Positions 16,014 to 25,765 of a stretch of 64,000 bases of DNA are shown here, one piece after another; the stretch's first letter is position 1; every line of letters begins with the position of its first letter. The notes below the pieces were generated by a model that worked only from the letters and a program-made list of their open reading frames with translations, was not told where the DNA came from and did no database searches. The DNA is from an uncultured Verrucomicrobiae bacterium (lineage in GTDB: Bacteria > Verrucomicrobiota > Verrucomicrobiia > Limisphaerales > JAFGQR01), in contig CAWBHS010000027.1 in the NCBI GenBank assembly GCA_963788655.1, positions 1 to 64,000 on the forward strand. The letters are read 5' to 3'. A program made the position numbers and the translations under genes.

Positions 16014-16211
16014 CCGTGACTATGCAGTAGGACAGGCGTCTCGCCTGTCCCGAACGAGTGCAAACCAACAACTTGTATCACGGCGCCGTGAGTCTTTTTC
16101 TATGTCACCAAACGGTAAGGATGTCTTGGGCTATTAGAGACAGGCGAGACGCCTGTCCTACCACGCCGAACCGCGTCATCGCTGCTCCAGCTACTGAATG
16201 GATACGGCTTA
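16011..16211. mobile_element. MITE-like element enclosing a GTAG REP doublet
   Basis: Ends agccgtgactatgcagtag / ctactgaatggatacggct; inner gtaggacaggcgtctcgcctgtc / gacaggcgagacgcctgtcctac; shorter related copy at 25675-25765. Confidence 0.65.
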
Positions 16212-16913: not shown

Positions 16914-16929
16914 CAGACTTGACCCGAAG

Positions 16930-17052
16930 AGCCAACCAGACGCTGGAGGCAACAGCCGCTGAGTCAGGCATTATGACCGTCACTGGCAACACAACACCAT
17001 CGGATTCGATCACACCGCTCGCCAGCGGCTGTGCCTGCACTGATCGTTGGCC
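16930..17052 (+). other. attC site 1
   Basis: agccaac...aggcaacagccgctg ... cagcggctgtgcct...gttggcc. Confidence 0.85.
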
Positions 17053-17077
17053 GGAGAGGTATTCGACCCTTTGAGCC

Positions 17078-17449
17078 ATGTTCCTTGTCGAGAAACTGCG
17101 AGACGAGACACTTCCGGATGTCGAGGCATCCCTGGAGGTTCTTGTCCGGGAGATTTACGGCAGGCGTCCTGAGTGGCTGGAGTATGATTTGCGTGGGAGC
17201 TACCGGTTTCAGGGTCGAGAATTCATTATGATGTTCTGTCCGGCAGGTAGCGTGCATTCCCACCTCACCCTTCGAGCTTTGACCGGAGACGGAATCAGCC
17301 GCGACATTTTGCAGTTGGGGACGAAAGAAGGTCGTCGACTGGCCTGGTTGATTCGTCAGGGCAAGCAGTCGGAATATGATCCAGCCGAGGTCGAAGAGAA
17401 CGGCCAACCAGGCGCGTCAGGCAACCGCCGCCCCGCGCCTCGACATTGA
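17078..17449 (+). CDS. Gene cassette 2: hypothetical protein
   Basis: 123-aa ORF between attC1 and attC2, running into attC2. Confidence 0.65.
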   Translation: MFLVEKLRDETLPDVEASLEVLVREIYGRRPEWLEYDLRGSYRFQGREFIMMFCPAGSVHSHLTLRALTGDGISRDILQLGTKEGRRLAWLIRQGKQSEYDPAEVEENGQPGASGNRRPAPRH

Positions 17450-17529
17450 CCTTTGCCGGTGATATGAACGCCATCATTACCAAGCGTAGAGCCCGCTTCC
17501 GGCGGCGGTGCCTGCGCTGGTCGTTGTGC
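17402..17529 (+). other. attC site 2
   Basis: ggccaac-caggcgcgtcaggcaaccgccgcc ... ggcggcggtgcctgcgctggtc-gttgtgc. Confidence 0.8.
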
Positions 17530-17545
17530 CGAAAATGATTGCATC

Positions 17546-18190
17546 ATGACGTCGCGGGAGTTCTATCAGCTTTTGGATCGCTGCCTTGAGCCAGGAGTGC
17601 AGCCGGTTAGGGCTGTCTCGGAAGCGTGGCACCGTATCGCTATGGTATGCGACTCTTCCCCAGCGGCACTTTCTTCTACGAGGTTTCCAAAGGTCCGAAG
17701 AGTCCGTTCATCCCGTATCTCGGTGGACGGTTCAAGGTCGACTGTGATCTTGCGCCTTCTGCGGATCACAAGCTGCGGGGGTTGCAGACGGCGATTTCGT
17801 ACATGGAGTTCTTCTCCGATGATGATTTGATGGCCATGCAGCAGCTACGGGATCGAGGACCTGCGTAAGATCATCGGCCAGAAGCCACCCGAGGTGCTCG
17901 ACCAGTTGATGCTCGAAAGCCATACGCCCTTGTTCCGCTGGAGATTGGTTCGCAGTTTAGGAGGCATCAGGTTTTCAAGCTGCCGTACCTGGATGCCGAG
18001 GACGTCTCAGCATCGGGGGCAATTCCTCGCATCACGTATGGAGCACACCCTGATTGAGGTGCGGGAGAGACCGGTATTCTTCATGCGAGTCGAGAACGGC
18101 CAACCAGCGGGTGGAGCGAACGGGGACCAGCCGATTCGCTCGGGGGCAAATTCAACGTCGTCGGAGGCTGGTCCCCGTCGCTCACCCTGA
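17546..18190 (+). CDS. Gene cassette 3: hypothetical protein (frameshifted)
   Basis: Overlapping ORFs 17546, 17626 and 17894 fill the space between attC2 and attC3. Confidence 0.5.
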
Positions 18191-18521: not shown

Positions 18522-18531
18522 TGATGATTTG

Positions 18532-18657
18532 GGCTAACAAGTCGGTGGAGACGAACCGCCGCCCCGCTTCTCCGTTCAACGCTGGGCGGCAATTCGAGAG
18601 TGCCTCGTGCGCTCCACCGTCCCTGTCGGCGGCGGTCGCTCACCTCTGGCGTTAGCA
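18532..18657 (+). other. attC site 4
   Basis: ggctaac-aagtcggtggagacgaaccgccgcc ... ggcggcggtcgctcacctctggc-gttagca. Confidence 0.92.
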
Positions 18658-18669
18658 CCAGACGCCCTC

Positions 18670-19065
18670 ATGACGCCGAAGCGCAAAAAGCTGTGGATTG
18701 GGTTGGGACTCTATGCCGTCCTCTGGACCGTTACCGGCGTTTTGGGGCTTCCACAGATTGACCGTGCTTTTGATCGGGAGTTTGCATCCGGTTCACCCGA
18801 TGCCTTCGCGACAGACGAGCATCCAGCGCGCAACGTGCCAGCTTCCAGGGTTCCCTACGTGCGAGTCACAGACCCGAGCAAGCATTCACTCCCCGACATT
18901 CCCTTCCGCAGCCGCTCGACTGGATTTCCCATCGCTCCATTCCTGGTCATCGATGAGGCTTGTGTTGCTGAGGCACCGCTTGCAGCCTTTTCCGGTCGGC
19001 GCATGGTTTTCTGGTTCTTTGGTTACACTCGATGGTTTCCTTTGAAAGTATGGTGGGTGTCGTGA
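18670..19065 (+). CDS. Gene cassette 5: membrane-anchored hypothetical protein
   Basis: MTPKRKKLWIGLGLYAVLWTVTG...WFFGYTRWFPLKVWWVS. Confidence 0.75.
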   Translation: MTPKRKKLWIGLGLYAVLWTVTGVLGLPQIDRAFDREFASGSPDAFATDEHPARNVPASRVPYVRVTDPSKHSLPDIPFRSRSTGFPIAPFLVIDEACVAEAPLAAFSGRRMVFWFFGYTRWFPLKVWWVS

Positions 19066-19069
19066 TTTG

Positions 19070-19195
19070 TGCTAACAAGTCGGTGGAGACGAACCGCCGC
19101 CCCGCTTCTCCGTTCAACGCTGGGCGGCAGTTCGGGAGTGCCTCGTGCGCTCCACCGTCACTGTCGGCGGCGGTCGCTCACCTCTGTCGTTCGGC
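19070..19195 (+). other. attC site 5 (near-identical to attC4)
   Basis: tgctaac-aagtcggtggagacgaaccgccgcc ... ggcggcggtcgctcacctctgtc-gttcggc. Confidence 0.92.
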
Positions 19196-20415: not shown

Positions 20416-20521
20416 GCCGAACCAAGCGACGGACCGAATGAGGAGGAGCGCCGGGCAGCCGCTTGCTCCAATCGAGCGTCTGTGGCGCGCTCCTCCTCAT
20501 CGGTCATCTTGATCGTTCGGC
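20416..20521 (+). other. attC site 6
   Basis: gccgaac-caagcgacggaccgaatgaggaggagcgc ... gcgctcctcctcatcggtcatcttgatc-gttcggc. Confidence 0.9.
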
Positions 20522-20529
20522 ATAAAGCT

Positions 20530-20922
20530 ATGTCCACCGCCACAAAGTGGAAACTGATCGCAATCATCGGCTGGATAATTGCGGTCGCGCTACTCGGTCT
20601 TGCGGGTTTGAGGACAGTGGAATCTCGCACAGGAGGTGGTTCTGCGATTGACTCGCCGGACGGGACGAGCACGGCTTGGCTAGACTCGTATCGGAAAATC
20701 GGGCCACTTGTTCGTGATACGAACGTGTGGATAGATGTTTGCATTCAGCCCAAGGGGATTTCCGGCGTTGCCAATTCCAGGTATTTGAGGTTTTCATGTC
20801 CCGATGCAGACATTGGGGATGAGATGTATGCTCGGAACCATGACGGAGCCATTTCTTGGAGTTCCGATTCCAGGACGGTTCGCGTGATTCTGCCCAGGAA
20901 GGAGATCGTGATTACCAAATGA
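20530..20922 (+). CDS. Gene cassette 7: exported/membrane-anchored hypothetical protein
   Basis: MSTATKWKLIAIIGWIIAVALLGLAG..SPDG..ISWSSDSRTV. Confidence 0.75.
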   Translation: MSTATKWKLIAIIGWIIAVALLGLAGLRTVESRTGGGSAIDSPDGTSTAWLDSYRKIGPLVRDTNVWIDVCIQPKGISGVANSRYLRFSCPDADIGDEMYARNHDGAISWSSDSRTVRVILPRKEIVITK

Positions 20923-21070
20923 GCACAAAGCCGAACAATCGCTGCAGGCAACAGCCGCTGCGCCGGGCAGTTGACCGGTTTATGAAACTTGAACATCATC
21001 ATTGCAGGCCACGCCCGCTTTCGGCGGCTGTGCCTGAGCTCATCTCTGAGGTGAGCGATCAACCAATTTT

Positions 21071-22409
21071 TCATTTTTTCTTCGCGGCTTTAGCGCCCTT
21101 TTGCTGGCGGCGGGTGTAGGGGTTTTTGCCTAACTCAATCTGATCGAACAACGCCACGATCGGGCTGCCGTGGCGACGCAGCGCTGCCTCATAACGCGCC
21201 TCGTCATAGACCTCGTGGCGCTGCCAGCAGCACCAGAGGATTCGCTGCCATTTGTAGGCCAGCGCCCGGATCGCGACGTGATGGCTGGCCCCCGCCTCGC
21301 GCGGTTGTAAGTAGTAGGCCGCGGCCCAGCGACTGAACAGGATCGAGCTGCCGGCATACTCGTGAAAGCTCTGCCGGCAAAACTTCGGACAGAGATAGCG
21401 CCGATGGACGTGTCGCTTGTTGCCACTCTCTTTGGTGACCGGGGCGATGCCACTGTAGCACTGGAGACTGACGACCGTGGGAAAACGCTCGCGCTGGCTG
21501 CCCACCGTGGCCAACAACCGGGGCGCCAACACCGAGCCGGCTCCGGGCAGGTTCTTGAAGATGACGTAATCGGGGTGCGCCACAAAGCGCTCCTTGATCT
21601 GCTGATCGTAGGTGTCAATGGCGGCGACGACCAGTTGGAGTTGGCGACAAATCAATTGCACGCGCAAGGCGTAGGTTTCCACCAGGGCCGATTCCTCGGT
21701 GAGAGCAATCGCCTGCCTAATACATTGGAGCCGCTGGTCCAGCCGGGAAGCGCTGTGGGAATTGTGCTGGCGATAGAATTGTTTGAGGGTGGCTGGCTTG
21801 ACCTTTTTGATCGCCGCCAGCGTGGGCCATTTCAACAACAAATCGGTGGCCAGCGGCCGCCACAGTTCCTCGCCGCACAGCGTCAACGCCTGCGGAAAAT
21901 AAGCCTTTAAGAGGGCTTGCAAGCGGTTGGTCAACTCGGTGCGTTCGTCCACCACCGCGCGGCGGTGGGTGACGGTTTGTTGGAGGTGGCGAGTGGCGCT
22001 GTCCTCGGGCATGCCACACGGTCAGCTTGTCGTGGTGAGTCAGCAGCAGTTCAGCTAAATAATAGGCGTCCTGGGTGTCGTCCTTGGCGCGGCTGGTGAC
22101 GAAGGCTTCCCGGAAATTTTTCAACGTCATCGGGTTGATGGCGTAGAGGGTAATCCAGGCATAGCCTTCCAGGAAGGCCAGGAGGTTGGCGGCGGGTTGT
22201 TCCACGCAGATCGCCACCCGGCCCTGGGGATGTTGCTGGCGCAGTTGGGCCAGCCAGTCGTGGAGGGCCTCGGGACTGGTGCCGATGGTTTGGTTGGCAC
22301 GCTGGTGGGTGCGCACGTCAATCGTGTGGAGATCGGCGGTGGCATCGGAGCGGTCCAGGCCGATGACCAGGTCATACGGATAATCTTGCTTCATCGTCGA
22401 ATCATTCAT
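21071..22409 (-). CDS. IS110-family DEDD recombinase/transposase (frameshift near 22015)
   Basis: VIGLD, CVEQP, RAKDDTQDA (DEDD RuvC-like); LPGAGSVLAPRLLA, YSGIAPVTKESG (Tnp domain Ser-Gly), AIRALAYKW. Confidence 0.93.
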
Positions 22410-22435
22410 GGTTTATAGTTGGGTGGTTTTCCCGC

Positions 22436-22600
22436 AGGCTTGACCCGGCGACGGTAATATAGAAGAGTTCTGACTGCAAGCGCGAACGCCCTCTGAGAAG
22501 TCGTTAGAGGGTGCAAGCCCGCCCCGTGGGCCGGTCGATAAAGCTCAAAGTCGTCCAGGCGACTGGTCGTTCGCAGACCTGGCCCACAGAGGCGAGAAAA
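22436..22600 (-). ncRNA. Predicted IS110 bridge RNA (target-binding and donor-binding loops)
   Basis: Two consecutive stems with internal loops; loop segments match the attC7 target and the IS circle junction on opposite strands (see findings). Confidence 0.8.
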
Positions 22601-22763
22601 CCGGGATACCCTACGGCACCGATGCAACGAATGCGAATAAGTAAATGTCATCATCAACAGTTCGGCGGCGCAGTTATTGACCGGCGGCTGCGGCGGAGCA
22701 ACGCGGAGCGCGCCTGGCCACCGGTGAATAACTGCGGATAACCTATATTGATCGTTATGCGGC

Positions 22764-23093
22764 ATGCGTACATTCCCAACAATGAGAGTTTGGTTGCCAG
22801 TCATAGTCGGTTTTGTCTTAGGCTTGTTTTTTGCATTGCCTGTTTTGAGCCGAGGTGTAGGTGATTGGTTTGAGGGCCATCCAATGACGAATCAGATTTA
22901 TGAAGTGTTGCATTTTCCAGCTATTATTTTGGCGTATCTCTTCGGGTTTATGTCCAACCCAAGCGAGATTGGCGCGGTTGGCGATGCTTTACCATATACT
23001 GTCATCATTCAGTGGCTCTTGGTTGGCTTTGTTATCAGCGCGATTGTCTATTGGAGGCAGTGCCGCCGTGAACATGCAAAAGACCTCGCCTAA
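22764..23093 (+). CDS. Gene cassette 8: membrane protein
   Basis: AT-rich, about three TM segments; stop TAA lies in the gcctaac box of attC8. Confidence 0.75.
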   Translation: MRTFPTMRVWLPVIVGFVLGLFFALPVLSRGVGDWFEGHPMTNQIYEVLHFPAIILAYLFGFMSNPSEIGAVGDALPYTVIIQWLLVGFVISAIVYWRQCRREHAKDLA

Positions 23094-23213
23094 CAAGCGG
23101 ATTCACACGAACCGCCGCCCCGCGTTTCAGTTTCGATGCGCCGGGTTCTTCGCACACTGGATTCGCTGCCAGTGGCCGTTTCCGGCGGCGGTCGGTGATC
23201 CTTGGCGTTAGTT
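23088..23213 (+). other. attC site 8
   Basis: gcctaac-aagcggattcacacgaaccgccgcc ... ggcggcggtcggtgatccttggc-gttagtt. Confidence 0.9.
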
Positions 23214-23490
23214 GTGACATGAAGTCGCATTCATCACTGCTGAGCATGGGCAACCTGACTCAGCCCTGCCTTTCGCGGCAGGTATTCCAGGGGAGCATGC
23301 GTTGGGCGGGCGGCCGCAAGGCTACTGTCCAGGGTGTGAAGCCTTCCCGACAATGTAGCCAGCCTGGGAGCCTCAATCCGGGTGCGGCGCTAGAATTGGA
23401 TGGTAGGGTCAACCCACGTGAACACTCGCAAGCATCGTCAGAGGAACGAGCCAGACGAGGCTGTTTTAAGGCTTCGATCAGAAAATAGCC

Positions 23491-25674: not shown

Positions 25675-25765
25675 AGCCGTCACTATTCAGTAGGAAAGGC
25701 GAGACGCCTGTCCTACCACGCCGCCTCCCCTTTATCGCAGCACCAGCCACTGTATGGATACGGCC
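25675..25765. repeat. Short copy of the 16011-16211 element
   Basis: agccgtcactattcagtagg..aggcgagacgcctgtcctaccacgccg...actgtatggatacggc. Confidence 0.65.

Follow-up and report, generated by a model that had tools for sequence, protein, structure and literature searches.

In insertion sequences (IS) of the IS110 group, the long non-coding end with the bridge RNA or seekRNA lies upstream of the transposase gene, while in the IS1111 group it lies downstream (PMC11208160, PMC11187229; all published work is cited here from partial texts). IS1111 transposases have 330-350 aa, and those of the subgroup around IS110 itself have 395-455 aa (PMC11187229). For IS621, guidance by RNA has been demonstrated experimentally (Durrant et al. 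2024, PMC11208160): the first loop of its RNA serves the target and the second the donor, and the 5' sides of the loops pair with the bottom strand and the 3' sides with the top strand (PMC11208160). The IS1111-attC elements form a monophyletic subset of IS1111; their insertions are found close to the 5' end of attC, the integron recombination site, and are antisense to the cassettes (PMC3001079). Durrant et al. (2024) list ISKpn4, ISPa21 and ISPst6 in one cluster, with domain alignments. IS1111 targets are also described as including 'potentially folded structures' (PMC11187229), and the idea that an IS immobilises cassettes has been voiced for ISPa21, where the experimental evidence is called limited (PMC11616780). 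Here, we describe an IS of 1708 bp that interrupts an attC site at positions 21041..22748, minus strand, of a 64,000-nt stretch of DNA (the window; positions 1 to 64,000 of contig CAWBHS010000027.1, assembly GCA_963788655.1) from an uncultured Verrucomicrobiae bacterium. From its sequence and that of its relatives, we consider it highly likely that this IS is a dead or non-autonomous, bridge-RNA-guided member of the IS110 group, and that its whole lineage is programmed for insertion into attC.

The ends of the element were set by aligning four copies from the same genome, which have differing flanks, and 23 relatives; ends and flanks are named in transposase orientation, i.e. the left flank is the R' side of attC and the right flank is the L' box. 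The element splits the attC between the L' and R' boxes, 5 nt ahead of the GTT core. On the plus strand, the left part of the attC (20930..21040) consists of the R'' box GCCGAAC, the L'' box, the variable loop and the L' box finishing ...GCCTGAGCT, and is made of repeats common to the intact attCs of the array; the right part (22749..22759) consists of a 4-5-nt spacer, TGAT(C), and the R' box GTTATGC, arranged as in intact attCs. As an earlier note on this DNA had claimed, excising 21041-22748 gives back a complete attC, no target sequence is duplicated beyond a single T common to element end and target (21040 / 22749), and the element is antisense to the cassettes, the transposase gene being on the minus strand and the flanking cassette open reading frames (ORFs; 20482-20922 and 22764-23093) on the plus strand. 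The restored target fits the attC plan R''-L''...L'-R' with RYYYAAC and GTTRRRY boxes, as judged by repeat comparison and folds. Folded alone, the right flank of the element closes an L'-L'' stem (104 nt, dG -25.2, z -3.6 compared with shuffles) followed by GTTCGGC, and the L'' partner reaches a score of 10 (shuffle p 0.003). Two extra bases are present on the arm that faces the insertion (GTTGCCTGCAGC vs GTGCCTGAGCT). Extra-helical bases define the attC bottom strand. Moreover, in sequencing run X1 a related attC continues uninterrupted past 21040 into TGAC-GTTAGC.

In transposase orientation the element begins with ATATAGG and finishes with CAGAGATG, while relatives finish with CAGAGGTG. The left end (LE; 22410..22748, minus strand) comprises 339 nt of non-coding sequence upstream of the start codon and is conserved across 23 aligned elements; the right end (RE; 21041..21070, minus strand) comprises 30 nt of non-coding sequence after the stop (21071), finishes with ...CACCTCAGAGATG and is kept in all copies. 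The earlier note had correctly described a long upstream and a short 3' non-coding end; it had regarded the former as an oddity, a view that does not hold up, because this is the defining layout of the IS110 group, in which the bridge RNA is encoded there (PMC11208160). The same layout was found in 23 relatives. The upstream 339-nt end and a protein of 445 aa therefore place the element in the IS110 group on layout and size.

Like the IS1111-attC elements, the element encodes a DEDD transposase of the IS110 superfamily, appears to be RNA-guided (by a seekRNA in the IS1111-attC elements), is specific for attC, inserts antisense without a real target duplication and would be expected to immobilise cassettes. 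By contrast, the guide RNA lies upstream of the gene here and downstream there, the transposase has 433-445 aa here and ~330-350 aa there, the insertion lies between L' and R' at the 3' end of attC here and near the 5' end there, and the hosts are soil and wetland Verrucomicrobiota with chromosomal arrays here and Pseudomonas and clinical class 1 integrons there. Based on these sequence comparisons, the element looks like part of an independent attC-targeting lineage that uses the opposite end of attC from IS1111-attC. In the open full-text literature, only IS1111-group elements and group II introns were named as attC-targeting, and no IS110-group case was found; subscription papers or supplements may contain one. 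Group IIC-attC introns (PMC3001079) resemble the present element in being mobile, in locating attC through pairing between RNA and DNA, and in splitting it; unlike it, they are retroelements with a ribozyme and a reverse transcriptase instead of a DEDD recombinase and a bridge RNA.

We scanned one genome per GTDB species for relatives and obtained 79 loci, mostly in metagenome-assembled genomes of Verrucomicrobiota. Both ends were found at 23 of these loci (designated L), and these together with three copies from the own genome make up 26 complete elements. In 23 of the 26, the left junction is preceded by AACG at a distance of 3-6 nt, in most cases in the form GCCTAACG, which is the classical attC core. 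Among the three without it, L022 and L051 lie outside attC, while L026 has GCCTAACG immediately on the far side of an intervening 21-nt duplicate of the left end. In the own genome, AACG adjoins all five copies with a visible left junction. The other copies thus sit in attC, as an attC-parasite lineage of the kind that the earlier note had envisaged should. Similarly, the right flank begins with AGCTCAG or a variant thereof, an L'' partner scoring at least 9 was detected downstream of the right flank in 14 of 24 testable elements (13 with shuffle p <= 0.01), and the right flank folds into a closed L'-L'' stem followed by GTT in 14 of the 24. The sites of both non-attC insertions still resemble the guides; in L051, the junction lies between AAACCACCA and AGCTGAG. 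Vacant attCs with the target word are also present in the own genome, on contigs (designated C) C39 (38331), C88 (109749), C44 (29706), C46 (2430) and C67 (26672). We also considered that the element itself might be a gene cassette and dropped this idea, because both attC halves flank the element and its ends are constant across different attCs.

An RNAalifold consensus on 23 aligned left ends has 61 pairs. These form a long hairpin on the 5' side and two domains in which a stem surrounds an internal loop with a hairpin cap. As folded, 96.8% of the cells are paired, compared with 25.6-46.8% with the partners slid, compensatory change is found in 14 pairs, compared with 0-5 with the partners slid, and none of 500 shuffles reaches the observed value on any pairing measure, although these statistics are favoured by design in that the structure was derived from the same alignment as was tested. 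The 5' hairpin (22669..22736; arms GCAGTTATTCA ... TCAATAACTGC) corresponds to helix 1, with 19 pairs, five of which have changed on both sides, and 95.6% paired; like all features of the left end, it reads on the minus strand. The proposed target-binding domain (22518..22595) is built on helix 2, with 17 pairs, seven of which have changed on both sides, and has a terminal hairpin at 22549-22564. The proposed donor-binding domain (22438..22517) comprises helices 4-6.

The internal loops of the two domains match the target and the ends of the element, respectively. The first loop carries CUAACGACCA, in the same sense as the R' side of attC; its 5' side, UGCGAACGACCA (22564-22575), belongs to an arm that reads (C/G)UAACG(A/U)CCA, i.e. 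the sense of the left flank with the attC R' core and spacer. Its 3' side, UUGAGCUUUAUC (22537-22548), contains UGAGCU, which is complementary to the right flank AGCTCA, the L' box. In the second loop, the 3' side, CUAUAUUAC (22454-22462), contains CUAUAU, which is complementary to the first bases of the element, ATATAG, while CUCAGAGGG on the 5' side (within 22488-22503) reads in the sense of CTCAGAG, the RE end, and resembles the right end CTCAGAGG. A pairing of 12 nt, UGAGCUUUAUCG, across the whole junction was dropped as a candidate, its left half not being supported by the relatives.

Guide and target vary together. At two variable positions of the right target, guide and target are Watson-Crick concordant in 24 of the 26 elements in which both are readable (GAGC with AGCT, n=19; GAGU with AACT, n=3; GACC with AGGT, n=2), and L051 has a G-U wobble. 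Among the relatives that appear re-programmed, L065 combines GACC with AGGTCAG and L030 combines CUCACUU with AAGTGAG, in which three positions have changed and all are compensated. Moreover, the variant LE starts ATATAG, ATATCG (L026) and ATATGG (L030) match their own loops CUAUAU, CGAUAU and CCAUAU. Because the elements are related, this covariation represents a handful of events and not 26 independent ones. In total, these observations support that the left end encodes a two-loop bridge RNA, the predicted loops of which match target and donor. The element thereby resembles IS621 and other bridge-RNA elements of the IS110 group (PMC11208160), i.e. a long LE encodes a two-loop RNA with the target loop before the donor loop; as in IS621, the 5' arms are in top-strand sense and the 3' arms complementary, RE and LE hold a candidate split promoter, and the core has 1-2 nt. 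Unlike IS621, its target is an integron attC and not a REP-like (repetitive extragenic palindromic) or linear site, its protein of 445 aa is in the size class of the IS110 subgroup with 395-455 aa (PMC11187229), the RNA has an extra long 5' hairpin, and the apparent core is RA and not CT.

The closest named transposase is that of ISEsa2, with 39% identity over 403 aa in BLASTP (E 3e-101), while BLASTP of the intact sister protein from contig C59 against IS4321, a member of the IS1111 group, gave no similarity. Using tblastn for an IS1111-attC protein, ISEc21 gave IS110-type matches only, and IS4321 gave, among the matches listed, IS4321 and IS5075 only. We calculated an IQ-TREE phylogeny of 47 rows, consisting of 41 of the 79 loci (ORF of at least 330 aa with a G[LIV]D motif), five named references and the C59 protein. 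The C59 protein and 13 of 14 attC-flanked rows fall into a clade of 20 rows with 98% support in the Shimodaira-Hasegawa-like approximate likelihood-ratio test (SH-aLRT); its sister clade (99%) contains ISEsa2 and verrucomicrobial elements with non-attC flanks, as set by comparing copies. The tree therefore puts the attC clade beside ISEsa2 and far from IS4321, with the separation from the IS1111-attC proteins, which are not among the rows, resting on IS4321 and on the printed monophyly of IS1111-attC (PMC3001079). Taking IS4321 and not an IS1111-attC protein as the reference, the lack of similarity to IS4321, the 39% identity to ISEsa2 and the length of 445 aa compared with 330-350 aa (PMC11187229) place the recombinase, indirectly, outside the IS1111 side; the placement on the ISEsa2 side and the family-wide insertion into attC support the suggestion of the earlier note that this is an independent lineage of attC parasites.

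The record of ISEsa2, from the Klebsiella plasmid pKOXM1B, leaves space for a layout like that of the present element: ~420 nt are unoccupied upstream, and downstream there are no more than 89 nt. Unlike the present element, ISEsa2 lies in that record between ISEsa1 and ncrY and not in attC, and in a different host phylum. In the sister clade, L056, L057, L060-L062, L064 and L068 have 42-44% protein identity, have the GTTATTCA 5' hairpin and the ACCTCAGATG right end in common, and insert beside GCTCCATCGCATT-like flanks and not attC. From their sequences, the sister clades look as if they differ by natural re-programming.

A sub-terminal inverted repeat of 9-12 bp is present in 22 of 26 family members, compared with the 2-3 bp printed for the IS110 group, while in the window copy it has 6 bp with one mismatch. 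The weak terminal similarity reported in the earlier note was therefore seen correctly, and the repeat has decayed in the window's own lineage. The family is abundant among metagenome proteins: identities within the best 120 clusters are 59-100%, and many of these lie on contigs of 1.5-2 kb. Among 400 evenly drawn genomes of the phylum, no close homologue at E <= 1e-120 was detected besides the own genome. The element family is patchy, or lost from assemblies.

The own genome contains seven matches to the element, with different flanks and identical ends. The closest copies, aligned with that in the window (contig C27), are on C48 (96% identity), C59 (88%) and C49 (81%). One extra base at 22010..22013 (minus strand), seen as a one-column insertion in the alignment with the three sister copies, breaks the transposase gene of the window copy into two overlapping frames, 21717-22409 and 21071-22012; this defect was absent from the earlier note. 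The N-terminal part (22014..22409, minus strand; ATG start at 22409) contains the DEDD or RuvC-like domain, with frame 21717-22409 matching PF01548 (E 9.6e-14, profile positions 1-113); the C-terminal frame (21071..22012, minus strand; 313 aa and stop) contains the end of this domain (PF01548 positions 118-155) and the Transposase_20 domain (PF02371, E 4.8e-13). Only one of six long copies in the genome, that on C59, has an intact gene, which encodes a transposase of 445 aa that matches NF033542, 'IS110 family RNA-guided transposase', with 163 bits at a cut-off of 140. The C48 copy has a 2-bp deletion near the gene start, and the gene is fragmented in the C49 copy and in two copies on C40. Because its transposase is frameshifted, the window copy is unable to excise by itself, a point on which the earlier note, which spoke of an excision of the IS, needs correction. 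In addition, C99 carries a lone remnant (135348-135570) with the last ~200 nt of the transposase gene and a truncated right end but no left part, which is 89% identical to the window copy.

In the contigs of four metagenome runs, we found no contig joining across the element, no RE-LE circle junction and no piece spanning the whole stretch; a lone joint of 21262 to 22135, found in one contig and extending 24 letters at its shorter side, is too weak for interpretation. The 12 sequencing runs listed contain at most 0.13 of the sampled words of the stretch, and no RNA run is listed as containing it.

If the element were an ordinary member of the IS1111-attC group of the ISPa21, ISPst6 or ISKpn4 type, this would account for the superfamily, for the attC target and antisense orientation, which are those of IS1111-attC (PMC3001079), and for the sub-terminal inverted repeat of 9-12 bp in 22 of 26 elements, a hallmark of IS1111. 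We consider this exceedingly improbable: with 339 nt of non-coding RNA region upstream and 30 nt downstream, the IS1111 layout is reversed (PMC11208160, PMC11187229), the protein has 445 and not 330-350 aa and lacks BLASTP similarity to IS4321, the insertion lies at the L'-R' end of attC and not near the 5' end (PMC3001079), and the tree groups the element with ISEsa2-like elements. It is also very unlikely, if somewhat less so, that the recombinase recognises the folded attC hairpin in the way of IntI and that the matches between LE and flanks are leftovers of past insertions or coincidence. Although attC sites are structured, printed IS1111 targets include potentially folded structures (PMC11187229) and variable R' spacing would be easier for a reader of structure, the compensatory changes between guide and target at four right-target positions in several lineages, the two-loop layout shared with IS621, an element that experiments have shown to be guided by RNA (PMC11208160), and the insertions at look-alike words outside attC all argue against it.

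These same look-alike insertions (L022 and L051, two of 26) are what would be expected from an element specific for a short word (approximately AAGCTCA, with loose matching upstream) whose identity with the L' box of one local attC type is accidental; the element would then be no attC specialist, and non-attC insertions would be as frequent but under-sampled. The loose left-target spacing fits this explanation, as do intact attCs in the same array with the L' boxes GTGCAG or GCGCAG, which are unoccupied. However, YUAACG, the attC R' core, recurs in the target-loop 5' arm in each of the 30 loop matches read (29 elements), this core flanks 23 of 26 insertions, and relatives re-programmed to AACTGAG, AGGTCAG or AAGTGAG are still in attC-like L' boxes. 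We therefore regard this explanation as unlikely, though it has more in its favour than the other two; in practice, it is a weaker wording of the reading preferred here, with attC specificity achieved via sequence.

Several observations weigh against a bridge-RNA-guided lineage programmed for attC. A strict fold test, in which AAC pairs with GTT, was passed by only eight of 24 elements and was replaced by the L'-L'' stem tests; the low pass rate is partly expected because R' boxes in arrays are hybrids. The match to the left target is loose: the distance from AACG to the junction is 3-6 nt, and by our tally only about two thirds of the elements have the same base following ACG in guide and target. 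Thus, the R'-side guide may tolerate mismatch, or recognition there works differently. Guide and target are mismatched in the C49 copy, the proposed left-donor guide is partly inside predicted helix 6 and ends 2-3 nt short of the element end, and the sequences narrow the probable core only to one or two bases (RA in element orientation). Rfam 15, searched with 20500-23300 at E up to 1, gave no match, and this release may or may not include a bridge-RNA family. Regarding the tree, it contains no IS1111-attC sequence, and the rows L054, L041 and L033, which have very long branches, are probably wrong ORFs, this being the reason why the attC-flanked L041 falls outside the clade. Finally, the frameshift in the window copy could be an assembly error; at 22011 or 22013, one contig each of metagenome runs X2, X3 and X4 has one base fewer.

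On the reading that the lineage is guided to attC by a bridge RNA, a mechanism can be proposed by analogy with IS621 (PMC11208160). The element would excise as a circle, and the RE-LE junction would form a promoter (TTGAYC/G, 17 nt, TATAGG) that would drive expression of the bridge RNA and the transposase. When RE and LE are placed end to end, 17 nt separate TTGACG or TTGATC in the former from TATAGG in the latter; in the window copy, the candidate -35 box TTGATC is at 21057-21062 and the candidate -10 box TATAGG at 22742-22747, both on the minus strand, and from sequence a junction promoter as in IS621 and ISEc21 is plausible. The 5' arm of the first loop would pair with one strand of the R'-side flank (...YUAACG-N4) and its 3' arm with the other strand of the L' box (AAGCTCA), while the second loop would hold the joined element ends; the DEDD recombinase would then exchange strands at a one- or two-base core (RA in element orientation, the shared T on the plus strand). 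Any cassette with the local attC type would be a target, because the guides copy its two conserved boxes. The window copy could move only with enzyme supplied in trans by the intact C59 copy. Moreover, the element puts 1.7 kb between R' and L', and the bottom strand then could not form the attC hairpin; this would make the site unusable for IntI, and any movement of the two neighbouring cassettes would have to be a joint one. A block of IntI excision at this attC and a fusion of two cassettes, both proposed in the earlier note, are thus reasonable predictions.

More tentatively, and with the balance rather against it, the lineage could be an unreported bridge-RNA clade in which attC parasitism arose independently of IS1111-attC by setting both target-loop arms to R' and L' of verrucomicrobial attC; its IS110 layout combined with IS1111-like repeats of 9-12 bp would make it a candidate intermediate for the proposed move of the guide RNA between ends.

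Uninterrupted attCs of the same type are present in the window array at 16926-17054 and 17398-17531, with ends that have the same spacer-R' arrangement (...CTGATCGTTGGCC, 17040-17054, and ...CTGGTCGTTGTGCC), and further attC-like sites are at 18094, 18534, 19072, 23090 and ~23750, giving at least eight sites within 16.9-23.9 kb. The attCs at 18525-18653 and 19063-19191 are separated by 538 bp and share 96% identity over 129 nt, as might be expected after a recent cassette duplication. Same-type attC sites are scattered on at least 20 contigs of the genome, e.g. at C9:104029, C38:55658, C47:441 and C100:92877. The ORFs that flank the element are without any Pfam family match. A palindromic word of ~24 nt, GTAGGACAGGCG...CGCCTGTCC, is present in both orientations at 16027-16054, 16134-16161 and 25693-25716, i.e. 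just ahead of the cassette array and at 25.7 kb, and is REP-like in appearance.

Three matches to the integron-integrase model TIGR02249 above cut-off are present in the genome and none on the window contig; the window array is therefore integrase-less, i.e. a cluster of attC sites lacking an integrase (CALIN). Integron integrase genes are present at distances of 6 and 10 kb from the IS copies on C59 and C49, and their divergent orientation is that of an integron. The two best integrase matches, C59:66134-67021 and C49:288364-289293, have one in-frame stop each (TAA and TAG), and only the match on C69 is open; the integrase may thus be dead in those integrons that carry IS copies.

Among the relatives, L031 has an insertion of ~30 nt (2305-2340; a small hairpin) within the 3' arm region of the proposed target loop, at alignment columns 217-248. 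In L026 (2118-2160) and L037 (610-680), the first 20-47 nt of the left end are repeated in tandem ahead of the full element, and GCCTAACG is found just upstream of the repeated part; these duplicates may be the trace of a second insertion into, or of recombination at, the donor end.

Insertion sequences specialised for attC have so far been described, in the texts available, only as the IS1111-attC group of Pseudomonas and clinical integrons. While the superfamily and the habit of inserting into attC are already known, the lineage, the position of the guide and the attC end are different here. A second lineage, with guide RNA and insertion point each at the other end, suggests that attC is a recurrent niche for RNA-guided mobile elements. 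Natural covariation of guide and target in a structured target makes the targeting rules of bridge RNAs and the effect on cassette excision directly testable. If the more tentative reading of an unreported clade with independently evolved attC parasitism is true, the lineage would be a natural re-programmable pair of recombinase and RNA aimed at integron recombination sites, and would provide a second system in which the freezing and reshaping of cassette arrays by elements of this kind can be studied.

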